DNA of 60,755 bases, filler included, from Hausera hauseri (lineage: Eukaryota), in the NCBI GenBank assembly GCA_046269625.1. It is 12 parts of 12 records of this genome, joined end to end, with 100 filler letters (N's around TTAATTAATTAA, not from the genome) between each part and the next. Parts side by side here need not be neighbours in the genome. Positions count along the whole stretch, not along the records: positions 24,814 to 30,104 come from JBJURY010288724.1; 11 more parts are not named here. One strand, written 5' to 3'. This document shows, in pieces, positions 5,666-60,755 of the stretch; the stretch's first letter is position 1, and each line of letters opens with the position of its first letter. A program made the position numbers and the translations under genes. The notes beneath the pieces are model-generated. The model made no database searches. It saw nothing but the letters and a program-made list of their open reading frames with translations, and had not been told where the DNA came from.

Positions 5666-6001
5666 CCTAATTATCGATTTTTGATTTTTCGAAAATCCAA
5701 TATTATTGATTTTTGCACACTTGCACATGTGCTGCACACTTGAACTTGCACCAATCGATGTGCACTCATGTGCATTATCGACTAGCACAAAACGCATATT
5801 GATTCGATCAATAGTGCACTGTGCAGAGATCGATTTGTGAAAAGTACAAAAATGTTCATACCAACGGTGCCTAACGGCACCGTTGCTAGGCACTCTTTGA
5901 ATCGATAGTGCTCCGGGTGCATTACTGATCGGCACATGTACAAAATCGATTTATCGATTATCCCCCTCCCGATGGTTCAGAACCGCCATTTTCACACTAC
6001 T
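5666..6001 (-). mobile_element. Maverick/Polinton-type terminal inverted repeat (5'-AGTAGTGTGAAAATGGCGGTTCTG...)
   Basis: The minus strand begins AGTAGT, a typical Polinton terminus. Rich in short palindromes (ATCGAT, GTGCAC, CAACGGTGCC..GGCACCGTTG). A diverged reverse-complement copy lies at 46615-46960. Confidence 0.6.
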
Positions 6002-6003
6002 AC

Positions 6004-9000
6004 ACGGGTTTTATCAAAAATCCAAAGATAGCGGCCAGTTGACGCGGCAGCATTAAAAAGAAAAGTCCGAAAATATGTCATTGATGCAACTGACCAAACA
6101 ACCATCAAGGAGTTCCTGGAGTACGCAGAGGAAGATACAGAGAGAATTCTCAGAGGCAACATAGCTGAGCTTAAGACCCTTAAGGTGAATATGAAACTGG
6201 AGGCCACATACATCAATGTTGATGGCGTGGAATCCAATAGAGACTTCAAGACCAAAAATAGGCCAATATTGGAGACGCACGAGAAGCTGATCCGTGTAGC
6301 CAATGAGAGCCAGGATAAGAAGAGTGGATGGACTCTGCCAACCATCAAGAGATTGCCTGTGTATGTTCACAAGTACTCTGCCATGCAGGCCAGCTCCTAT
6401 ATACAGCTTCCGGAATGGATCGCTAATAAAAATGCATGCATTAATGTCCTTAATGGTGACAACAAATGTTTCATATGTGCCGTTTTATGTAAACTCGTAC
6501 GGGATCAAAAACATGCAGCAGGTAGAGTTTGTCTATATAATGATCTGCAGCACAACTATGGCTTCTAATGTATTAAGTTTCCTCCATCCTTTGACGAAAT
6601 TAATAAGTTTAGTCGAGTCAACAATATATCCATTAACATCATCTGATTGGATGATGAGAACAACTTCTATCCCCTGCAGATATGCGATACTAAATTGGAA
6701 GATCATAGGGATCTGCGCCTAATAGACGATGGAGAAAAGAAACATGTTTGGATAAAAAACTTTGAGCATCTAGTCAGATCTCAAATTACCAAACGCACAA
6801 CAAGAATCGAAATATGCAAACGATGCTTTTTCCATTTCAGAGGCGATGAGGCCGTGGACAAGCTTGAAGAGCACAAAATGTACTGCAGCAACAATTACTG
6901 TATCAGGACAGATTTTCCCAAAGATTACTACATTGAATTCAAAGAGTTCGAGAAGAATATCAAGGTCCCAATAGTTATCTATTGCGACTTTAAAGCTATT
7001 CTGTGTCCAGTTCAGAGTTGCAGTCCTAATTCCCAACACAGCAGCACAACGGCATTCCAATATCATGAACTCTCATCATATTGTATGTATGCCAAAGGAT
7101 TGAACAGTGAACTATATCTATTCAGAGGTTCAGGCGCAGCAGCACATTTCATAAAACGACTTGAAGATATGGCTCATAAGCTTGAGCGATATGTTGCAGC
7201 AGCATAAGCATATAATGAGCATGTCGAAAAAGCAAGAAGAAGAATGGCGCAAGGCAACAACATGTTACTTGTGCTCCAAATCATTCACTAAAAAGAATCA
7301 TAAAGTCAAGGATCATTGACATTTTACAGGCAAATATCGAGGCGCAGTATGCAACAACTGCAATCTGCGGTGAAACATATGTACGTATGTGCCTGTAGTG
7401 TTCCATAATCTCAGTGGCTATGACTCCCATTTTATTGTTCGGGAACTGGGAAACATTGAGGGAAACATTGATGGATCCCTAATAGTGAGGAAAAATCAAA
7501 AATCAGGCTTCACTTCATAGACAGTTTACGTTTCATGTCGTCTTCACTTGACAGTTTAGTGAAGAACCTCCTTGCAGAAGAACTCAAGGAGACGAAGCGA
7601 TTCTTACCCACTGCTTTTGACATCGTCAAGAAAAAAGTCGTGTTTCCCTATAACTACATAACCTCATGGTAAACACTGGATGAGATCTCATTGCCGGCCA
7701 ATAAGGACTTTTACAATATTATCTCTGATTGCGACATCAGTGATGCCGACTACCAGCATGCCTAGAACGTCTGACAAGCATTCCAATGTCGAACGTTAGC
7801 GGAATACAGCGACATATACCTCAAGAGGGACGTGCTGCTGCTGACGGATGTCTTTGAGAGCTTCAGGGATGTTATAGTGAAAATATATGCTTTGGATTTG
7901 GCTCATTTCTTTACGGCTCCAGTATGAGTTTGGCAACAAGTCTGCGCTATACTGGTATTAAGCTGCACATCATAAAGGATTACGACATGATCCTCATGAT
8001 TGAGAGAGGCATTAGAGGCGGAATATGCCAGGACATTTACCGGTATAGCGGAGACAACAACAAGTATATGGCCCAGTATAATCCATCCAGAGAATCCTCA
8101 TATATATCATACCTGGATGCCAACAACTTGTATGGATGGGCAATGAGCAACCCATTGCAATATGATAACTTCAAATGGGTCCAGAATCCTGAAAACATGC
8201 CTATATTTGACATAGATCCCACTGGAGATACGGGATACATACTGGCGTTAGATATGGAATATCCGGCTTAAATTCACACAAGGCATCAACAGCTGCCTTT
8301 GCTCCTTGAGAGCAGGCCTCCGCCCCGTGGAAAGCACAGAAAGCTCCTCTGTCATCTGAGTAATAAGGAGAGGTATTTACTTCACTATATCAATCTCCAG
8401 CAGGCCGTTAGACATGAACTTCGCATTACTATGATCCAGAGAGCCCTGCAGTTCAACCAGTCCATGTGGCTGCAGTCATACATAGATCTCAATACGAAGC
8501 TGCGGATTAATGCCAAGAACGACTTTGAGAAAGATCAATTCAAATGATATAATAACAGCGTTTTTGACAAGACCATGGAGACTATCCTCAACAGTATCAA
8601 CATTGAGCTAGTATGTAACTGGAAACGAGCATAGATGCTCATTGCCAAGCCTAACTTCCATAGCAGCACTATATATACTGAGAACGTGGTCATCATCCAT
8701 GTGCTGAAAACAGCATTGGTATTCAACCGGCCATATATGTGGGTATGGCAATATTGGATCTATCAAAGATCTTGATATACAGATTCCATTATGACATCAT
8801 CATCCCCATGTTTAAGTCTATGCAGCTGATGTATATGGATACTCATAGTTTCATCTATCAGATCCATACACATGATATTTATCAGGACTTTTTCCAATTG
8901 GCCAAACATAAGGATACCTCGGACTATCCGAAGGAATATCCCACCTATTCAATTGCCAAATAATGAAGTTCTTAGTAAATTCAAAGACGAGATGAATGGA

Positions 9001-9140
9001 GCAATCATCTCGCGATTTGTAGCTCTTAGGTCCAAAATGTATGCAATTCATGTATGTGATCAGATCAAAAAGAGAGCCAATGGCGTTCAAAAGGCTACAC
9101 TGGTCAAAAAGATCCGTTTTCAGGATATAGTATAAAGCCA
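6004..9140 (+). pseudogene. Maverick/adintovirus protein-primed DNA polymerase B (vOTU-like + EndoVII/HNH insert + exo + pol), many stops/frameshifts
   Basis: Motifs in order: SGWTL...SSYIQLPEWIANKNACINVLNGDNKCF; IVIYCDFKAIL; VKDH*HFTGKYRGAVCNNCNL; VVFHNLSGYDSHFI; FIDSLRFMSSSLDSLVKNL; GIRGGI; YLDANNLYGWAMS; KNDFEKDQFK; YMDTHSF; FVALRSKMY. Confidence 0.92.
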
Positions 9141-9229
9141 AGTAAAACTAAGTAACTACTATATATGTTAAGGCCAACTAATATCATAACACATTTATTT
9201 AGTAACAATATAACTTTTATATAACGCTA

Positions 9230-9700
9230 AACACTTTTAGTGTGTGTGCGCTTGTCTGTGCTTGTAAAATGTAAGTAACATGATAAAAGGTATATCATAT
9301 ATATATGTCAGTATGCTTGTACATGTAAAATGTAAGTAACTTGAGAAATGAATGATTAAAATATATGGTGTGTGCTTGTGTGCATGTCTGTGCATGTAAA
9401 GTGCAACTAACATGAAAAAAGGTATATCTCAAGTATATGTCAGTGTGTGTGTGCTTGTGTGCATGTGCATGTATGTGTATGTAACGTGCAACTAACCTGA
9501 GAAAGGGTATATCTCAGATATATGTTAGTGTGTTTGCCTGTGAGTGTTTTTCTGAGCTTGTAAAATGTAAGTGACCTGAGAAAATGTAGAGCTCAGATAT
9601 ATGTATGTGCATGTATGTAAAATGCAACTAACTTGGGAAAATGTATAGCTCAGTTATATGTCTGTATGCTTGTGCATGTGTGTAAAATACAAGTAATATT
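9230..9700. repeat. degenerate tandem repeat, ~55-90 bp units
   Basis: Recurrent gtgcatg...gtaaaatg(t/c)aa(g/c)taac(t/c)tgagaaa.ggtatatctcagatatatgt, about 6-7 copies. Confidence 0.75.
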
Positions 9701-9709
9701 TAGCTAATA

Positions 9710-22555: not shown

Positions 22556-24713
22556 AGATCATATCTTCTCTATTAATTGTGGTATGGTTAATAGTTGTAG
22601 CTCGTGCATGATTATTAATTTATGTATCGGATTCTTTAAGCAAACTGATCGTATTCCGCACCTGTAATTCCAGGCTTTAATCAATTCATGCATGGGGTTA
22701 TACCATGAGAGTTTTATTCCTGATACATTCATAATTTCATCAAATATTCTTAAGCCAGAACTATAAATCATTCTTTCGTTCTCGTACTTTTCTCTAAAAG
22801 ACTTACCTTCAATTATTGCTTCCTTAGCTAGCTGACATCGAAAGCTAGTGATTAGCAATAGATTATCTTTCATTGGATGAATATTGGGGTTGTAATTCGA
22901 TTCTTTTTGATATTGTTCAAAATATTTCTTATACATGTCAATGTAAAATGATATGAGTTCTTTTCTTAGATGGACAGACAAACTCCATAGATAATTTGCG
23001 TATTGAATACTTTGGTGAATATCCCAGCCGTTTTTTTGACGAGAAGTTATCTCGTTTTGATACATTTCTAGTTTACCATTTCTGTTCGGATTGAGTCGTT
23101 TAATACTTTCTTTCTATTCCAACTGCATTACATGTTTGTCTATGGTCATTAATCATAATTCTTTTATCTGGGGCTTGATCAAGCGTAGTTACAGGGTTTC
23201 TATTATTCAAAGGTAAGTGAGTTACTCGATTAGCGACGGTATATAATTCGTATTCCTCCGTTGATAATTCGTGTCGTTTTCTGCGAAGCTTATTTATATG
23301 ACGAAATATTGGAACGACTTCGTTAACAGTCAAATATGGGTGATCTGTCACTGATTCTACCCCTTGGGCGATTAATGCTACGATTATTTGTGTCTCTTCC
23401 GAGAGTACATCAAAAGGAGAATAAATTTCTTCTTTTATATAATTGATTATGTCTTCATTTTGAGTTATTAACTGTAAATAGTGTTGATTAAGTTTCAGAT
23501 ATTTAGCATAAATAGCCAAGTTTAACTGAACTGACATATTTAGATCCAACCACCCCTCATCTTGTTCAAATCCTCTAACGAAAACTTGTCGTTCTCTTTA
23601 TCTTCTTGTATTCTTTTACGTTCATAACTCTCTATTTGCCGAGATAACGGTAGGTGTGTATATATGGTAGAGCTTTGAGATTTATTCACTTCTAATTGTT
23701 TAATGCAGTACTTATCTTTGTGATCAATATTTTCATGCTCGAGTGACAAGGATTTATTTGTCGCTATCTCCTTTAATTGTGCCGTAGTTTGACGTTTTAT
23801 TAATTTTGTTTTGATAGTTGGGACTTCTTCTAATACAGTATGTCCTTCAATCGGAGTAGTATCCTCATCGCTAGTTGATTGTTTAGTTGTTCTCATATGG
23901 AACATTAGATTAATCAATATTATCAGTATTCACCAAGTCAACGAACTTTCTGGTATATTTTTTGATATCGTTGGAGCGGCTTCTGCTGTTCCAAACAATA
24001 TAAATGGAATGATGAGTAATATTAATATTGGGTAAGTTAATCCGATACCAATTGTATTGAACTGGTTACTATTAATTGATATCTGTTCATATATTTCTTT
24101 TTCTTCATTAATATTCGAAATGCTTTCCTCAGTAGGTTCAGTTTTATTCATGTCGGTATTAATACCACTAATTACCTGATTGTTAGGGTTATTACTTCTA
24201 ACTGCCGACCAGAAAGCGTCATTCTCCTCCTTGAAACGTTTATCCGTGTATTCCTCCATCTTGGATAATTTTTTATTATAGTGTAACCCTAAGATTTGCT
24301 TGTCAAAAGCATTTGATTCTCGGAGACTCCTTATCCTAACCGCTGTTGTTTCTTTATTATTACCCATCCTTTGTCTGCAAGTGCTTATTATTCTTTTTCT
24401 TTCTTCTTTAAATGGTCTAGCTATTTCATTATTATCAGGTAGTTCGCAAAATATTATATGATACCGTACGGCATTTAATTTACCAGAAAATTCACTTGCA
24501 CTTACAGTATCAAATTTATGTATATCCATATAATCCTCTGGGGTTAATATGATGTTCTCATCTCGTTCTATATAATCATTCCATACTATCCGTGCTTCGC
24601 CTTCCTCAAATAGTTTAATATCTTCTCGAATAAGATCATCCTTTATAGCCATAAGTGTGTAAATCATCCAGCAGTTAATCGCATAAGTTTTAAACTGGGA
24701 ATTAATATTTAAC

Positions 24714-24813: not shown

Positions 24814-26330
24814 ACGCTTTTACAGAATCAGAAATCAAAAATAAGCGAGAGTTTGTACAGAAATGGCAGAGGGACGTAATTATTGAACTAAGCGATTATC
24901 ATCAGAAACGATTCATCAATTATATCGAATTAGGCGATTTACTGAAAATTATTCAGTATGCCTGTGGAAACGGAATAGGGTTTCGAACTACCCAGATAAA
25001 AGAAATACAACCAAAATTGAAAGAAATTCGAGAAAACGTACAAAGAACGAACACAGCCCTAGTAGACTACGGACTTCCAGATATTGGGAATGAACCAGAA
25101 TGGAATGCTTATTTAGAAACAATAACAGCCGAAAATCGCATATCTCCGGTATATCTAAATGAAATAGAAATGTACCTGCAGAACAGGAAATTTAACGTGG
25201 AGATGCTCCTGAACTCAGCGTTAACCGAAAATGATTTGATTGAATTAATTAATGTAAATGTTACTGAAAATAAGCTCAGACAACGCATTTTGACTTTGAC
25301 TAAATTATGCAGCGAAAACATAATTTACAACACCTTGCCGAAACTTTTAATAAAGAAGTATGCGAAAATTTGGAAAGATAAACCTGAGATAACGATGAAA
25401 ATAAGGATATCATCTGAATAGATGAATGAAAAATAATGTGAGTAACCACTCATTCCTACATAAAGGACGTAATAAAATGGTTATTATATAATGGCGGAAC
25501 AAATGAGCTAAATTATAGATTTTACTTTAGAGGGAGAATACTCGACGATTTAGAAAAGTTAATAAATTTCGGAATTATCCCCGATGAAACAAACCGGATA
25601 GTAGTAATAATATCCAATGAACAGACGAAAGAAGAAGCCACGCGAAAAGCTAAAACGGAACAATATGTAGGGCAAATCATGAAAGTACGAGATGCCGCAA
25701 TGTATTTCGAGTATTTACAGATAGATGAAGACAAGGAACAATATGACAAGAATCTAGTGCCATTAAGTAGAATGTTGACCAATGTCCCGAGACGAAACGT
25801 CCAGTCGGTAGACCGAGGAAAGCCAGAGAAGAAGTTGACTATAATGGAAAATTGATTAAGGATTTGAGGCAAATGTCGATTTCTACCCTTAACGCAGACA
25901 ATGAGGAGTTAAACGAGTTAGTGAAAAATTTAATACGTATCGTAAATTATTCAAGTCTTCGCGGAGATACATTAGACGAGAAAGAAAAAGCGATATTTAA
26001 CGCAGCTAGGACAGTGAGAAGTTTGCGTTTTAAGCTGTCAAAAAGTAGCTTAACTGACGACGCAGTAGTTGAGAAAATTATGGTGGAGAATATGACAGAA
26101 GAGCTAAGAAAAGTATTATTGTACTTGGCGATCAAGACAAGTCCAAATCGAGAGGATGAACTAAATTGAGCTACAAGCTTGGCACGAAAAGAAGCTAGAA
26201 AACTTCCGTGTAAAGTAAATTGACCAAAATTATTCGACAAGAAAGAAGACAAAAAGAATAGTAGTAACGGACTCGGAGATATTATACGGAATTTAACGAC
26301 AACAGAAAATAACAACAGAAAGAATGAATC
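24814..26330 (+). pseudogene. degraded helical polyprotein region upstream of the glycoprotein
   Basis: Frame open from the contig start (KREFVQKWQRDVIIEL...PEWNAYLETI); contains motifs resembling those of the 14442-24713 polyprotein. Confidence 0.5.
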
Positions 26331-26339
26331 AAATTGGTT

Positions 26340-28681
26340 AATCAGCTTACAACCATAATGATGCTAATGAAACAGATGGGTGCTGTTACTGTCTACGATT
26401 GCGATAGATGTAAGCTTGGACAAAAATATTCACTAATGGATTTCGAAGCATGCGAAGATGCCAGACCACACAAATTGGAAACAAAGGGGAAGAGTTATTT
26501 CCTATATTAACAACAAGAGTTAATGTCCTTGGATAGCATGGAATGTATGCTAAGACAATCTCGTAGTATTTTCCACTGTAGATTAATGCATGGACATTCC
26601 TCAATAATTAAACCAACAATCCCTCCAATTCCAATGAATTTGGAAAGACAACATTGCAAGCAAGCCCGAGAAACCGGAAGACTAAAATGGGACAGTATAA
26701 AACTAGAAATGCAGCCCGGAAAGATAATCTTAGCATACAAGATAATAGTTGGAAGGCTCGATATGAATAACGGACACTGCAGCGGAGAGGAATACGACAC
26801 CGGAAAAGGATTAGAAGCGAACTTAGTAGTAGGGGACTTTTATGAATCAGAAATGCGAGTACAGAAAGTGATTTTCCATAGCCTTACTAAGCTATATACC
26901 GAGAATCAAAAATGTCACATACAAGACGAAACCTGTACTTTCAGAAGCTCTATCGTCATATGAGAACCGCTCGTTGAAAAGGCTGTAATTTTATTAAGAT
27001 TAAGGAATTGAAGTTTAATAAAACTACTGTGACACGATACTTAGACAAATCCGATATCAGTTCAAGAACACCTACGATATTAATCTCTGATCAGCATGGA
27101 TTGAAATTCATAAAGAAAAGGAATGATTTCACGTTGTGAAGTAGTAATGTTCACCACTAACTATGTAGCCTTTGTCGTCGCAGAAACGGAGGTAAACGCG
27201 AAAACATATAACTTAGATACTCAAAACGTTCGAATCGAATATTACCTAAAAAACCGAGATGATTATTTCTATTATAAAGGGCAAGTCGGAATATCCGAAT
27301 TATACCATAAAATGATAACTAATGATTGCAAATTGGATACGGAAATTATGAGGACAAAATTAGCTCTTATTTATGCGAACCCTAAGTTAGACTCATCGAT
27401 TATTCCAATGAGAGAAGGAATCTTCGGCCGAGTTACTGTCGAGATTCTACCGACATGAGTGCGAGAAGAGATGTACCAATTAATGTCGCAGAAAAACGAT
27501 GTATACAAGAACTCCCCGTGATCTATCAAAACACTCCACGCCTAGCCATGCCCCTCACCAGGGTGTTGCTAAACAACGCAACATAACCTACAATCTTAAA
27601 GAATTGTAAAATAAGTTTGGGTGAACGAAACGGATTGGGTTAGCTTAACTAATGTAGGTGTCACTATCATTCATAAAAAACTAACTGGAACTAATTTAAC
27701 AAAAGGAATTACTGATGACAAGTTTCAGAATACATCTCAAAAAGGTATTTATAGGCTTAAAGAAATCGACGCTTTTCGGCAATTTCTCGCTTTTCCACGG
27801 CAGCCAACACACGAACTAAACCGAGCTATGGCATCAGTAGTAGACGATACCCGTTATCAGGCCAAATGGGAATCCCTGCTTGGTGCAAACCATTACCAAC
27901 GGGTAGCCACGGAAATACTCTACAAAATATGGGGAAAGTTTTTAATCTTTGGACAAGCTGCATCTGGATTTTTAGCAATCGATTTCTTGGTACAACTAGT
28001 AAAAGCGGTAATCCAAGCGGTTATAAACGGGTACGAAATATCACGCTAACAGGATTTTCCTGCAAGATCTTAATCGCAATTATCACGCCTTTCGGCAAAA
28101 TGCTTAAAGCATATGAAAAAAATCGATGGAAAAATGAAGTTGAACACCATGTCGGCTACCATAATTATAAACGACGAGCAAGATCCACAGTTCTATTGAA
28201 ACGCAAAGCTAAGAAATCAATGACACGAAGAGATAACTCCGATGATGACGAGCCTAAGGGAGGAGAAGCAATCCTCAGACAAAATAGACACAGAATGTAT
28301 TCAGTGATTAAGGCACAGTTACCCATCATGCAACCGACAGCTCCAATATATGAAGAGTGCGACAGAACATCTATTGTATCATACAAATCGGAAACTCATC
28401 GCAAACCCTTCAGCTATGAAGACCCTTATAAGGGAACAAAACAATATGGAGTATTAAAGAAAATGAAAATCACTAATCAGAGACGAGCGGAAGATGACCA
28501 TAAAATATTATACTCACCAAGAATAGCTCGTAATATAGAGTCAAGATCGACAGTTTGGGGAATACAAGGAATGAAAACGCCCCAAAATCCATTAGCACCA
28601 GAACCATTAATTAGAAACAATGCAAATAGCATAGCGATTAATGACTTATATCTTAACGAAGAACTGAAACAGTTGATCTAA
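26340..28681 (+). pseudogene. chuvirus-like (Jingchuvirales-type, class III/gB-like) envelope glycoprotein with long cytoplasmic tail
   Basis: Signal-like LTTIMMLMKQMGA then VTVYDC...YSLMDFEAC; CMLRQSRSIFHC..HGHSS...QHCKQARETG; IVGRLDMNNGHCSG; ELYHKMITNDCKLDTEIMRTKLALIYANP...GIFGRVTVEIL; GIYRLKEIDAFRQFLAFP; KIWGKFLIFGQAASGFLAI...INGYEI(fs)TGFSCKILIAI. Motif order follows chuviral G consensus as I recall it. Confidence 0.8.
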
Positions 28682-28750
28682 AATATCATTTAATCACCAG
28701 AAATAACGATAAACGAACATAAGATTTCTTCAGTTAAGCGACCAAAGGAC

Positions 28751-29554
28751 GTGTCAAGTTGTTATGGAACAGTTATGGAAGGGAGACCCTTCACAAAAGT
28801 TACCATTGAAGATAGGGAAGTCTATGCCTTAATCGACACTGGATCAGAGAAATCGTTTATCAAATTAGAATCAATACCGCCGATACTACGGAAACAATTG
28901 CAGCCAGCATCGTCGTCAGATCCAGGTAGCATAGGAGCTTTCGGGCAGGAATCCAAACCGAAATTTAAGTGGAGTCCCTTAGTTCAGTTAATGTATCAAA
29001 TTCTTCGACACGCGTTTGCCGTAATGGATCAGCTAACCGATGATGTAGCATTAGGTTGCGATATACTGAAACAATTACCTAATATCGCAATAAATTTATA
29101 TACTGGAAAACTACTGGAACTTGAACCAGTGAAAGGTATTAAAACAATAAAAGAAAGGAAACTAGGAGAGGTATGGATTCCCGTCGACGAAAATATTCCG
29201 CCCAGAACCGAAATGTTAATTTGTGCTCAAATCCGTGAAGAGGACGACCAACCAGTATACTTTGAACCACAAGACGTTAATCGAAATATCATACTTAGTA
29301 ACGTTTTGACAAGAGCAATGACAGGAAGGGTACCAGTCAGATTAGTGAATAATGCACCGACTTACGTACAATTATATGCCAATACCACCTTGGGTCATAC
29401 TTATAAGGTATCGGCAATAATAATCGAAGAAAAAACAAATATGCTGAATTTCCACCTCATGTTGAAACTAAGTTTTCAGCAGAAGCATATTGCCAATTTT
29501 ACGAATTATTATGCAAATATAAGTCGATTATTGCTCAAAATGAAGAAAATATAG
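28751..29554 (+). CDS. Ty3/gypsy aspartic protease plus degenerate dUTPase-like spacer (fragment of pol)
   Basis: VYALIDTGSEKSFI ... DVALGCDIL; then IPPRTEMLI...VPVRLVN...LYANTTLG. Confidence 0.85.
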   Translation: MSSCYGTVMEGRPFTKVTIEDREVYALIDTGSEKSFIKLESIPPILRKQLQPASSSDPGSIGAFGQESKPKFKWSPLVQLMYQILRHAFAVMDQLTDDVALGCDILKQLPNIAINLYTGKLLELEPVKGIKTIKERKLGEVWIPVDENIPPRTEMLICAQIREEDDQPVYFEPQDVNRNIILSNVLTRAMTGRVPVRLVNNAPTYVQLYANTTLGHTYKVSAIIIEEKTNMLNFHLMLKLSFQQKHIANFTNYYANISRLLLKMKKI

Positions 29555-29579
29555 GTAGAGCAAGAACATTAAAACTAAC

Positions 29580-30104
29580 CATTCCATTAAAAAAGAAACC
29601 TGGCTCCAACGACGAAATTGATCTGGAAGAGCAAAAGATGCCAAAATGGTACCCACCGCCTCATTCATTAAGGTCCTAAATAACTAAAGAAGTAAAACGT
29701 ATGTTGAAGGTTGACATAATACGACCAAGCTACCTATTTTCGTATTCACCAATACTCATGGTCAAGAAAAAGTGTACCACCAAACATCGATTCTGTATAG
29801 ATTACAGAGCCCTAAACACGCTTATGATGAAGGACTCATTCCCACTACCGTCAGTAAAGGAAACATTAGACAGATTATCAGGAACAAAATGGTTTACCAC
29901 ACTAGACTTACAATCAGGATATTGGCAAGTAGAAATTGAAGACGATCGTTATAAAACAGCAATTAAGACGCACGACGAAGTTTACGAATTTAACGTCATG
30001 CCGTTCGGTATAACAACCGGCCCAGCCATCTTCACCAGAATGATGAATAAGATGTTAATGGGACTAGATCACGCGTTCGCCTATTTAGACGATGTAATGA
30101 TAGC
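29580..30104 (+). mobile_element. Ty3/gypsy reverse transcriptase (truncated by contig end)
   Basis: HRFCIDYRALN..MKDSFPLP..ETLDRLSGTKWFTTLDLQSGYWQV...YEFNVMPFGITTGPAIFTRMM...AFAYLDDVMI (YLDD). Confidence 0.95.
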
Positions 30105-53685: not shown

Positions 53686-53694
53686 TATATAAAT
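53686..53694 (+). promoter_or_regulatory. TATA box of the serine protease gene
   Basis: TATATAAAT about 30-37 bp upstream of ATG 53723. Confidence 0.5.
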
Positions 53695-53722
53695 CATTCG
53701 ACATTGTACAAAAATCATCAAC

Positions 53723-54572
53723 ATGTCTATTAGTCCAGTAATATTACTGATGTGCGTTGCCTACGCAACAGCAGATTGGAAAGTAATTAACGGATCCAAC
53801 GCTATCATGAATGAATTTCCCGATATTGTCTCTATCGTTATAAACGGAGATCATTTCTGTGGAGGGACTTTAGTAAATAAAAATACTGTTCTTTCAGCAG
53901 CCCATTGTGCATGGCCGATCAAGGATTTGGATGCGAATTCGTTGCGTTATTACCGTGTCAAAGTTGTAATGGGTCAATATGATCAACATGTGAATTCGGG
54001 AATGGAGAAATCATTTCAAGTAACGAAGGTCATTATGCATCCGTACTACACACAGGCAAATTCATACGTATATGGTAATGATGTTGCAGTATTCAAATTC
54101 GAGGGAGAAATGTTAGACACTGAAGTGTCATACATAAAATATGTTAATCTGGCACAAAATGAAGTGTCAGCACCAGGAATGCGATGTCAAGTTGCTGGAT
54201 GGGGAAGCATGAATCCATCGGGAATTGGGGCAGCTCGAATTTTGCAGAAGGCTACATTGAATGTAAGAATTGTTTGTGACACAATAAGAAATATTTATTT
54301 GTATGATATAGGTTTTGTCGAATGATGAATGCTCTCGTGTCTTCTACAATGTGAGATACACACCATCGAACATCTGTGCAGGAAGCGGTGTACTTTCTAC
54401 CTCTGCGTGCAAAGGAGATTCTGGTGGACCATTGTATTGTAAAGATGGATTCAACAGAAATGTGCAAGTTGGTATCGTTAGTTATGGAGTAGTTCCTTGT
54501 GGACAACCAAATACACCGACTGTGTTTGCTCGAGTATCTAACCTTTATTCCTGGATAAAAAGTGTGTCTTAA
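53723..54572 (+). CDS. secreted S1A serine protease (chymotrypsin/elastase-like), 2 exons: 53723-54262 + 54312-54572, 266 aa
   Basis: Signal peptide, K|VINGS activation site, HFCGG, SAAHC, NDVAV, GDSGGP triad; 49-bp GTAAGA...ATAG phase-0 intron; AATAAA at 54578. Confidence 0.92.
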
Positions 54573-56631: not shown

Positions 56632-56685
<54 letters not shown>

Positions 56686-56708
56686 AACAACAACAACAAC
56701 AACAACAA
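56632..56708. repeat. (AAC)n microsatellite
   Basis: ~25 AAC units with one AAT variant. Confidence 0.95.
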
Positions 56709-56849
56709 GGAACCGCCAGGCATCAACAAGTCTTGACGACTTAATCAGAAATAGTACCCAGCAGCAGCAGCAGGAACAGCATCAAAAAGAAGAATAACAG
56801 GAGGCCAGTATTCCCAACATTACAGTCAAGTGCGACCTGAAAAGATCGT

Positions 56850-59800
56850 ATGTGGACATGAAGGTGGACATGTCGGCTGAAACAACAGCAACAACGCAAT
56901 TGAAGGATGTACCCGCTCATGTGCGTAACCGATTGGAAACAGAGGTTGCCAAATTCCAACATTACCACCACCACCACTGCAAAGTGCAATATTATGCACT
57001 TGCAGAATTTGGAAACGTTGAAGGTGACAGGAAACAGTGGTACCTGTCACATCGAGCCGTACTGTATTCCGACGATCTTATTCCGACGTAGGCGAAAACC
57101 TCGAGGAGAAAATCGCCAACTACACGAAAAAGGGTAGTGGATGGCGAATTATACAAATTGTCGCTTTCGGCTTTATTGTAACTAAGTCTAGTGACATCAT
57201 ATATTTGTCCGGGCGATAATTCATACCGACACCTGCAGCTCTGAAGCAGTCTGTGGCGGTATTGAATATAAAAAATACTAACGACGGATACTGCTTTCTT
57301 TACAGTATTCTGGCGATATTGAAATGCGACGAAGTGGACATACATAATGCATCTTGCCAAAAACAGTATCAGAAATATTTTTACGAATTGCATTTCGATG
57401 AAAGCTGGATGCCGATGAAACTGAAATCCATTCCGACATTTGAACGGCGTAATCCGACACTGACAATCAACATGTTCCGGTATAACACAATCGTAGAAAT
57501 ATCGGCGGATGAAGAAATTTACAAAAAACCCCATATGGATATAATATAGGGTAGTCGGAACCCAAATGGCTGCCCAATAAATTTGTTGTTATTGGAGCAA
57601 AAGGAAAAATTCCATTGCGTTGCAGTGACAAATCTGGACAGACTGTTGAACATGGAACATGACCAGTTCATCGAAAAGCGAATACGGTGTAAATGGTGTC
57701 CCGTGTGTCTGCACTGATTCAGATCAGAGACAACATGGGAGAAACACATGACTCTGTGCAGAAAAAATTCAACGGGAACAACCATGTACGTAATGCCACT
57801 CAAAAAGGGGCTTCGATTCGGTGCCTGATCGAAAACAGACAGTCCAGCATACGTTGTATATGCCGATATCGAAGCTGCCTTACTACGGCACAACATATAT
57901 GACCAAAAACATGTTCCAATCGCCGCCGGTATGTTGTTTGTCCCAATAAAAGCCGCAGATCAACCGCAATATTACGTTTTTCATAACTGGAACTGCATAC
58001 GCGATTTCCTGCATCAGTTGGAAACAATAGTAGAAACGAAACTCGCACCCTGGTACAGTAGAAATAGCAATAAACCCTTGATGTGGTCAGATGAAGATGA
58101 ACGCCTGACGCTTGCAGTCACGGATGAATGTTATCTGTGCCACCACAAAATATTGCCGTTCGATACACAGGAACGGCTCGTACCGGATCACGATCATTTT
58201 ACCGGTCGATATCTCGGAGCAGCATGCAATTCATGCAATTTGGAAAGAAGGGTTCGGCCATTCCTGCCAGTGATTTTTCATAACTTCCGGGGTTATAATT
58301 GTGACCATATTTTGAAATGGGCCATCAGCGGATTTCCGCACTGGGAGCTATCCATAATCCCAACAACAATGAAGAAGTATCTGTCCCTATCGGCACGCAT
58401 AAACCGGTTTCAGGTACGGTTTCTTGACTCATTGCAGTTCCTCAATGAGTCTCTAGGAAAGCTCGTAAGTGCCTTGTCAGATGTGCCGATAACGCTGACG
58501 CAGTTCCCTGCGCATATTGTACGTAGCAAAGGCATATTCCCATATTACTTTGCTGTGTCATACGAGCGGCTTCAGACAACAGAGGAATTGCCGCCATAAT
58601 GGACCGGAATCACAGAGGAGGAGTACCACAGAGCACAGGAAGCGTGGACAGGACTCGGCTGCAGAAAAATGTTGGAGTACATGCTCCAGTACCTTAAACT
58701 GGACGTAATATTGCTGGCCGACGTGTTTCAGGCATTTTGTACTAAGGCGTTAGCGGAAGGTAGGCTTGAGCCGCTTAATTTTTACTCCATACCGCGGATG
58801 AGTTGGGCATCGGCCCTAATGTCGCTGGACAGTGAAATTGAGCTGCTGCAAGGCCCGGAAATGTACCGCTTGTTTGACTTTGGCATTCGTGGCGGCATGA
58901 CGTTTGTTAACAAACATCACGTAACCAGTGATGATACCACGTAAATGTTGTACATCGATATTAATAACCTGTACGGCTGGGCGCTTTCGCAACCTTTGCC
59001 GCACGGTTCATTTGAATAGGTTGTCGAAAAACCGGAATTGGATGCATTAAAGGACAGTCTGCCTGCAGCAAACACGACAGAAAGCAGCTCAGTCGGCTAC
59101 GTAATGGAAGTCGATCTCGTCGTTCCATATGAGCTGCATGACGCTCTGGACGAATTACCCGTGGCACAAATCAGCCAATGTCCACCCGGCAGCTGAAAAA
59201 AAAGTAAAAAAAACTGCTCATGACACATGAACCGAGGCTGGATTACGTAGTTCATTGGCGTCTGCTGCCGTTTTACATACAGCTCGATGTACGTGTCACA
59301 CAGCTGCATCGTGCAATCCGTTTCAATCAGGCGCCGATATTCAAGGCATACATCGATGGAAATTCTGGGAAACGAGCCGCAGCTTGTACAAAGTTCGAAA
59401 AGAACTATTACAAGTTGAAAAGTAATTCTTTTTACGGCAAAACAGTAGAGAACCTCAAAAAGTGGCTCAATGAGCGCCTGTGCAACAACAAAAAGCGGCT
59501 GGTTACTTACACCAGCAAGGCTCAATTTAGGCGGTCAATGCACATTGCCGACGGATTAGTCGCCGTGCTTCTCAACAGTGAAGAAGTAGTACTGGACCGG
59601 CCAAGCTACATCGAGCAAGTGGTATTGGACCTGAGCAAGTTGCGAATGTACGAGCTGCAGTATCGCGACTTGGCACGTTACTGGCAAATGTTTGGCGGCG
59701 GCGGCGGCGTCTGTGAGATCAATATCGTTGCCGGTGACACAGACAGCTTTTCCCTTGAGCTAAAAAACATAAATCGGAACCAGCTGGTCCGACAAATGAT

Positions 59801-60233
59801 GTCAGATGGACTACTGGACTCATCCGACTACCCACCGGATCATCCGCTGTACAGCAGCGCGATAACAAACAAAATCGGCTGCTTCAAGAACGAAAGCGAA
59901 GGCCGGGTCAACTACAGGGAATGGATATTACTACGCCCAAAGTGCTTCAGTCTGTTGACGGACTATGGGCCGAAAATGCGGGCAAAAGGCATCCAACTGA
60001 AACAGACGGTACTAAGTCATGGTTATTATCGCCGTGTCTATGATAAACATGAAGACGGAGAAGACGGAGGAATTGCAGGAAAGGTTGTTGTGTCTGAAAC
60101 GACCATAGGATCAATTACGCACCAGCTGTATACCATCACAAATCAAAAGGTTGCTTTGTCATGCAACGATGACAAGCGAAAGTGGCTGGGGCAAAATAAG
60201 AGTTGGGCGTATGGGCATTGGCTGTTGAAGTAA
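56850..60233 (+). pseudogene. second Maverick/adintovirus protein-primed DNA polymerase B (distinct family), with stops/frameshifts
   Basis: GSGWRI; VLNIKNTNDGYCFLYSILA; YVVYADIEA; VPDHDHFTGRYLGAACNSCNL; LPVIFHNFRGY; RFLDSLQFL; KGIFPY; LDVILLADVF; GIRGG; YIDINNLYGWALSQPLP; YKLKSNSFYGKTVEN; GDTDSF; LRPKCFS; DDKR...AYGHW*. Confidence 0.93.
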
Positions 60234-60482
60234 AGCACATACATTGCACAGTCAGTCAGCTTATATCAAGTACAATCAGTCAGACAGTCAGTACAATTTA
60301 TAAAAACTGACACTTACTGTCATTTCATTTGATGAATAATGTATATTTGTTCACGTGTTTTGTTTTGTTCTGTCTTTTTAATTTAACGTATTATTATTAT
60401 GTATGGCATTTAATAAAATAATGAATTAAGAGAAAAGTAAAATCAATATTTTATTAATCATAAAACACAAAAAGAACGCAAG

Positions 60483-60755
60483 TCAAATCAAACTAAATTT
60501 GCCCAATTTCACCATTGGGGATTTAACGCCACCCAGTTTTTTGTAGCCTTTCAATTTCAGCGTCAAGCAGCCTTTAGCACCTTCGGATGGCAAAGTCATC
60601 GCTTCTGCTTCTGTTGTTTTTGTTGTTGTTGTTGTTGTTTTTGTTGTTTCATCGCCACTTGAACAAACAATTTTTTTTATATTGCCCTTGAGAAAAAGAG
60701 ATGATGTGTCCCGAATATCATTGGACAACACCAAATCACTGTCGACGTTTTTCAG
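60483..60755 (-). CDS. 3' end of an unknown gene convergent with pPolB (probably a Maverick accessory ORF)
   Basis: Frame runs from the contig end to a stop at 60483; the AT-rich gap between the two genes has AATAAA on both strands. Confidence 0.3.
   Translation of the reverse strand: MKNVDSDLVLSNDIRDTSSLFLKGNIKKIVCSSGDETTKTTTTTTKTTEAEAMTLPSEGAKGCLTLKLKGYKKLGGVKSPMVKLGKFSLI

Follow-up and report, generated by a model that had tools for sequence, protein, structure and literature searches.

The window analysed here, a stretch of 60,755 nucleotides from the Hausera hauseri assembly GCA_046269625.1, consists of 12 contigs, each 4-10 kb long and separated from the next by a 100-base spacer padded with N, and neighbours across a spacer are not necessarily neighbours in the genome. 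One of these contigs (24814-30104; 5,291 bases, GC content 0.37) carries part of a retroelement in which a chuvirus-like fusion glycoprotein (G) lies upstream of the protease (PR) and reverse transcriptase (RT) of a pol region. Since the contigs are separate and lie behind spacers, the element is cut off at 24814 and 30104. Its domains read in the order ubiquitin-like piece, G, tail, two TAA codons, protease, spacer and RT, on a plus strand that is A-rich across the whole 25-30 kb region. The following features were found in the contig.

24816..25418, plus strand: upstream polyprotein piece of 201 aa; open frame with no Pfam family
25442..25640, plus strand: likely C-terminal part of a ubiquitin/SUMO-like module, from a profile of 5 relatives
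25771..26352, plus strand: AT-hook-like motif (AT_hook E 0.059-0.072) and helical region, at the position of the relatives' Bcl-2-like domain
26346..26393, plus strand: internal signal-peptide-like remnant before the YDC start of G, with a mild hydropathy peak of 1.35
26394..28046, plus strand: chuvirus-like (Monjiviricetes) fusion glycoprotein of class III, ectodomain and anchor, broken; PF24664 in 4 pieces
28040..28678, plus strand: second hydrophobic stretch and a tail/linker of 213 codons that shares the protease frame and carries PTAP and, close to its end, a possible worn YP-type motif
28679..28693, plus strand: junction with two TAA codons (28679, 28691)
28694..29080, plus strand: retropepsin-type aspartic protease (RVP E 4.5e-6), catalytic DTG at 28835
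29090..29434, plus strand: PR-RT spacer domain, from a profile of 6 relatives (40.8 bits, E 1.2e-14)
29464..30104, plus strand: reverse transcriptase up to the YLDD motif (RVT_1 E 1.2e-21), with a stop at 29677, cut by the contig end

Reading frames and decay of the copy

The G ectodomain fragments at 26394, 26523, 27123 and 27621 lie in a common frame (position mod 3 = 0), and the tail and protease share another (27866, 28679, 28691 and 28751 all mod 3 = 2); both TAA codons, at 28679 and 28691, are present together with the junction peptide quoted in the original prediction, a reading of the sequence alone that had made each of these points. Its view of G as one frame with a single shift near 28045 is refuted by further excursions and in-frame stops: the third Pfam piece of G (27386-27583) is in a different frame from the rest, the frame is left a second time near 26976-27113, and stops interrupt it at 26508, 26961, 27456 and 27584. 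The proposed transmembrane-tail open reading frame (ORF), 27866-28681, does hold the tail and the second of the two hydrophobic stretches, both in the protease frame, but the main anchor lies elsewhere. The G-homologous reading, with the main hydrophobic anchor at 27969-28025, keeps the ectodomain frame to ~28040-28046, so the ATG at 27866 is not a real start. The pol region is also broken, by a frame change near 29434-29464 and the stop at 29677. Apart from the two at the junction, 5 in-frame stops occur over 1,192 codons, and the frame changes several times. The copy is dead, and hence poorly suited to studying how particles form and spread from cell to cell.

Between 28040 and 28836, 2 stops interrupt the 265 codons of the protease frame, compared with 18 and 29 in the other two frames. 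Neither an open stretch of 213 codons nor a frame with ≤2 stops arose in any of 5,000 shuffles, so the open frame of the tail is beyond chance. The linker up to the protease Asp measures 265 codons in this copy, compared with 92-352 in the relatives described below.

Identity and fold of the glycoprotein

The Pfam family Monjiviricetes_fusion (PF24664) matches four pieces of G in profile order (E 1.2e-9, 9.7e-7, 0.056 and 8.3e-15). A structural model of G was computed with stops read as X and an 80-row alignment as input; it leans on the relatives' alignment, with ~100 query residues off-frame, and has a mean pLDDT (predicted local distance difference test) of 82.5. The best Foldseek match of this model is the G of Tacheng tick virus 4 (E 2.5e-28). 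Against PDB, herpes glycoprotein B (gB) takes up the top rows, varicella gB being the best (E 1.6e-10); at the sequence level, G had no real match in PDB. By its modelled fold, G is a chuvirus-like class III fusogen, and the PF24664 and Foldseek matches bear out the identity first proposed for it.

Most of the closest relatives carry G and protease in one protein

Relatives were collected by a full HMMER search of 1.84 billion representative proteins, which returned 167 matches at E 0.001 or better; the best 15 of these are considered the closest relatives, and two cluster mates, P0153 (4,844 aa) and P0157 (3,003 aa), were added. Because protein libraries favour open frames, DNA was also fetched by G patterns, and the 593 candidate stretches came down to a single locus, L001. 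Searches of a protein word index, one of them with the junction read with X, gave no match at E ≤0.001, which is weak evidence only. No relative turned up among the 117 stretches of a metagenome scan with a G piece of this copy, nor, with alignment A3 as query, among 600 stretches from viral genomes and 493 from prokaryote genomes. No RNA data set is listed as carrying the sequence, which says nothing on expression.

A protease follows G in the same protein in 11 of the 15 best matches (P0003, P0004, P0006, P0007, P0008, P0009, P0010, P0014, P0015, P0016 and P0017), and the other four (P0005, P0011, P0012 and P0013) end inside G or within 30 residues of the G anchor. Five of the 11 polyproteins reach RT (P0003, P0004, P0010, P0016 and P0017), four of them also integrase (IN), and the same order of G then pol is found in P0153 and P0157. 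Moreover, locus L001 is a stop-free single frame of 3,061 codons that carries, in this order, a ubiquitin-like piece, G, three protease motifs, RT, RNase H (RH) and integrase. The RH-IN part is present in P0003, P0004, P0016, P0017, P0153, P0157 and L001. The original proposal that G was translated as part of the Pol polyprotein, N-terminal to the protease, is supported by these 11 relatives and L001.

In the relatives, G is also internal: it follows an internal signal peptide, with Gag or accessory domains fused further upstream. The upstream parts comprise Gag or CCHC knuckles (P0009, P0012, P0014 and P0017), a ubiquitin-like module, a GRP-type AT-hook and a weakly seen Bcl-2-like domain (P0005, P0007 and P0012), followed by a hydrophobic stretch immediately before the YDC start of G. 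The RT of this copy is 44-54% identical to those of 8 env-pol relatives, proteins with the order PR-RT-RH-IN and gypsy-type Pfam domains, a likeness that points to a gypsy-type pol. Along the G, protease, spacer and RT of this copy, matches to these relatives are collinear.

Tandem protease-like domains follow G in P0153, P0009, P0007, P0004 and L001, with up to 7 Pfam stretches in P0153; the same group also has ankyrin and C2H2 pieces, as well as additional membrane modules downstream of integrase. The best relative, P0003, is recorded as a hypothetical protein from a metagenome bin assigned to Flavobacteriaceae and is likely mis-binned animal DNA.

A FastTree tree of G slices from 41 chosen sequences places this copy on a side of 15 rows (Shimodaira-Hasegawa support 99) together with 12 env-pol proteins and 2 truncated ones, and the other side holds 26 mostly free-standing G proteins. 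This grouping bears on whether G could be an independent chuvirus-derived endogenous viral element (EVE), or an env of the kind found in Anakin elements, inserted by chance upstream of an ordinary gypsy pol. The resemblance of the G fold to chuviral glycoproteins would suit such an event, and insertions of this kind are common near retroelements (PMC7642597), but G groups with the env-pol polyproteins and not with the free G proteins, and collinear matches to the same relatives run through G, protease, spacer and RT. In addition, the tail is open in the protease frame, the A-richness of the plus strand continues throughout, and many divergent copies cover each of the parts. The contig, the G-protease interval included, contains no long repeat and no LTR-like (long terminal repeat) boundary; such a boundary between G and protease in other copies had been named in advance as a sign of separate insertion. 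An independent insertion is largely refuted and is, in our judgement, highly improbable. A stand-alone chuvirus EVE was also considered and rejected, since this G is linked to pol in frame and descent.

The copies of the family were surveyed by aligning contigs of sequencing run X1 to the stretch, where depth does not equal copy number. All 30 bins of the contig were covered, by 15,323 contigs, of which 12,574 are <95% alike, which shows that the complete layout is that of a family with many copies. Among the run X1 pieces listed, one needs a single gap to pass the 28040 shift, and other frame changes of the copy coincide with indel rows. The same data speak to the idea that collapsed repeat copies were joined into a chimeric contig during assembly, which would make the breaks and junction stops partly artefacts. 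Short contigs in a repeat-rich draft would favour a chimera, as would the facts that run X1 contains only 0.32 of the sampled words and that no listed piece spans the whole stretch. A chimera within one family, however, would keep the domain order, which the intact relatives confirm, and we give this explanation very little weight.

Upstream module and PR-RT spacer

The segment 25442..25640 scores 9.8 bits against the profile of 5 relatives, a score reached by 0 of 200 shuffles (0 of 60 in hhalign), and it is likely, as judged from this profile, that a ubiquitin/SUMO-like module stands upstream of G. Atlas ubiquitin clusters (0.84-0.87) and ubiquitin-like chains in PDB (E 0.095-0.84) are leads only, and a Pfam ubiquitin match is absent from this copy. 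The last ~25 residues of 24816..25418 may represent the N-terminal part of the module; this signal against the relatives' ubiquitin-like profile is weak, being reached by 0 of 60 shuffles in hhalign and by 81 of 200 in hmmsearch. Gag, if present, is off the contig. A single-sequence model of the helical region is all-helical (pLDDT 57.5) with no clear fold match, and the idea of a Bcl-2 domain at 25870-26262 found no support from profile, Atlas features, Foldseek or VIA-align, an unlisted Bcl-2 being not the same as an excluded one.

The spacer between PR and RT has no Pfam match. Its score against the profile of the 6 relatives was reached by 0 of 200 shuffles, and by this comparison it is clearly homologous to the relatives' spacer.

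A probable single polyprotein and its two junction stops

Taken together, we consider it probable (about 0.8) that the contig holds a decayed Ty3/gypsy LTR element similar to the planarian element Burro, in which G was translated in one polyprotein with upstream accessory domains, protease and RT, and in which the junction stops result from decay. The single-polyprotein interpretation is based on the domain order, the class III fold and the single-frame G-PR-RT-RH-IN proteins among the closest relatives.

Several observations weigh against it. The relatives come from protein libraries that favour open frames; they are distant, being 19-28% identical to this copy in G, and the copy forms a long branch (1.64) in the fast G tree. 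The contig, with the element cut at both of its ends, shows no Gag, RH, IN or LTRs, and the score of the Bcl-2 profile over the helical region was reached by 37 of 60 and 32 of 200 shuffles and is not significant. As to the junction, two TAAs 4 codons apart arose in 1.9% of uniform-decay trials within the linker and in 7.9% anywhere in the element. The first TAA stands ~10 residues past the possible worn YP motif (a one-mismatch guess), and free G proteins end at a median of 16 residues after their YP motif, which is present in 35 of 65. Finally, no listed copy bridges the junction, with 8 of ~15,400 pieces and 40 of 1,256 variant places listed.

The junction points could fit a family of the same element type whose G tail ends at a genuine stop, so that Gag or accessory domains with Env would be the main product, and PR-RT-IN would be made at a lower rate by readthrough or re-initiation. 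In such a case, a Burro-like lineage would have regained the stop at the natural end of the captured chuviral G, leaving Env-anchored protease-RT-integrase to arise only by readthrough, and a stop-gated env-pol junction would set the Env:Pol ratio. The rarity of such a cluster by chance, the agreement of its position with the ends of free G proteins and the stop-free remainder of linker and protease (460 codons) speak in favour of a genuine stop. On the other hand, a full tail followed by a stop occurs in none of the 15 best matches or L001, there are two stops where one would suffice, and the YP-type motif of this copy depends on tolerating a mismatch. To our knowledge, the contexts of the stops are also unlike the usual readthrough signals. 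Furthermore, 28657-28719, a stretch that includes both stops, reads open in the neighbouring frame; two compensating indels a short distance apart, of the kind seen twice in G, could thus also yield both stops. We therefore regard a functional stop as unlikely, and the two junction stops as likely products of decay. A single programmed frameshift at the junction is ruled out, since tail and protease already share one frame.

Proposed topology and motifs

For the intact ancestor translated as a single polyprotein, the internal signal peptide before YDC would thread G into the lumen of the endoplasmic reticulum and be cut by signal peptidase. The G anchor would then stop transfer, so that tail, protease, RT, RNase H and integrase would remain cytosolic, tethered to the membrane via the G tail until released by the protease of the element. 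The outcome would be Env and Pol in equal amounts, with Pol placed at the membrane from which particles bud. The cytosolic position of protease and RT is what we infer from hydropathy, on the presumption that the pair of hydrophobic stretches closing G makes one net membrane pass, as in gB-type proteins. The extra hydrophobic stretches between G and the last protease in L001 and P0153 are, on our reading, paired.

The G tail of this copy contains a PTAP motif (28334-28345) and a possible worn YP-type motif (28646-28654). After removal of the near-duplicates P0006, P0015 and P0155, 11 linkers between G and protease remained among the relatives, and 9 of them contain a YP motif, ~11 times the rate elsewhere in those proteins. 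The YP and PTAP motifs of the tail may be a late-domain or sorting signal retained from the captured gene, which we offer as a lead only. The regular design across relatives (internal signal, G, anchor, YP motif and one to seven protease domains) provides a testable model of a membrane-tethered Pol.

Other contigs of the window

The contig at 30205-34357 carries, on the minus strand, a decayed RT end, RNase H and integrase. It picks up ~31 codons past the point where the RT of the element contig stops (P0003 residues 1507 and 1538), and its integrase is followed by a hydrophobic stretch, as in the relatives, with no env-sized frame after it. By this alignment to P0003, it may be an inverted continuation of the same element.

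The contig at 14442-24713 shows ~10 kb of near-continuous coding on the minus strand (frames of 1,641, 399, 286, 266 and 260 aa), with several hydrophobic stretches, PPxY motifs and two occurrences of a ~80-residue block, one near 23933-24712 and the other close to where the 1,641-aa frame starts. It has no clear Pfam family and no tblastn match from 16 long relatives; one possibility is that it forms an accessory part of a giant mobile element.

Two related decayed pieces, at 5666-9709 and 56632-60755, match protein-primed type B DNA polymerase and endonuclease VII and are Polinton/Maverick-like. In addition, a trypsin-family protease frame was found at 53693-54322 (plus strand) and a Gag-like CCHC knuckle fragment at 44009-44452 (minus strand).

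Comparison with known systems

The nearest described system is Burro of planarians, in which a single polyprotein carries Gag, Ubi/SUMO-like, BCL2, mononegavirus-like Env, PR, dUTPase-like, RT, RH and IN domains (Arkhipova and Yushenova 2019, PMC6431247). Burro/GYPSM1 are giant gypsy-like LTR elements with env in frame between gag and pol (PMC6431247). This copy likewise has a mononegavirus-like env before the protease and, with modest support, a Ubi/SUMO-like piece upstream of env. Both have a spacer domain between PR and RT, and the corresponding position in Burro is termed a dUTPase-like domain (PMC6431247). Decayed copies with stops and frameshifts, such as the present one, are reported for Dugesia japonica (PMC6431247). 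The present copy differs in its two junction stops and in lacking a significant profile score for the Bcl-2-like motif before env. Moreover, Burro, as portrayed in the available parts of its description, reaches a giant size of >30 kb with LTRs and also has MATH, BIR and ankyrin domains, whereas only 5.3 kb are seen here. The element likely works like Burro and belongs with it, a placement set by the published description of Burro and not by aligned Burro sequences.

A gB-type class III env before pol, as Foldseek suggests for this copy, is also the arrangement of the GAG-ENV-POL Ty3/gypsy errantiviruses with an HSV/gB-type (herpes simplex virus) ENV from Nematoda, Bryozoa and Platyhelminthes (Chary and Hayashi 2026, PMC13524379). 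Compared by eye with the rows accessible in supplement 2 of PMC13524379, the G of this copy and of the top relatives is nearer to the Schmidtea 'Platyhelminthes C1a' rows than to the bryozoan or nematode rows. The accessible sections of PMC13524379 treat intact elements only, whereas this copy is broken. Env before pol in a metavirus is also attributed to nematode non-canonical endogenous retroviruses, as cited in PMC13524379.

The nematode elements of Sacco et al. 2022 reportedly have one continuous gag-env-pro-pol frame. Anakin elements are BEL/Pao elements with a chuvirus glycoprotein in mosquitoes (PMC7642597) and thus also LTR elements with a captured glycoprotein of the same family, but their backbone is BEL/Pao, whereas here G precedes the protease in what appears to be a gypsy-type pol. 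The BEL-linked match P0108 (DUF5641 then G) falls on the opposite side of the G tree. With neither a BEL/Pao backbone nor a G of the free-standing insect clade, this element is not a member of Anakin. Troyka, which lacks env in the accessible part of its description (PMC12440569), was ruled out.

The env-before-pol layout is not new, having been in print since 2019 for Burro. The observation from which this work started was largely right, and the element is new but broken, and of a type already published. Its significance would rise if the junction stop proved conserved or if its host fell outside flatworms, nematodes and bryozoans. As it stands, the element adds one divergent (<30% identity in G), many-copy family to the small and little-studied set of retroelements that carry a class III fusogen inside a Gag-Pol polyprotein.

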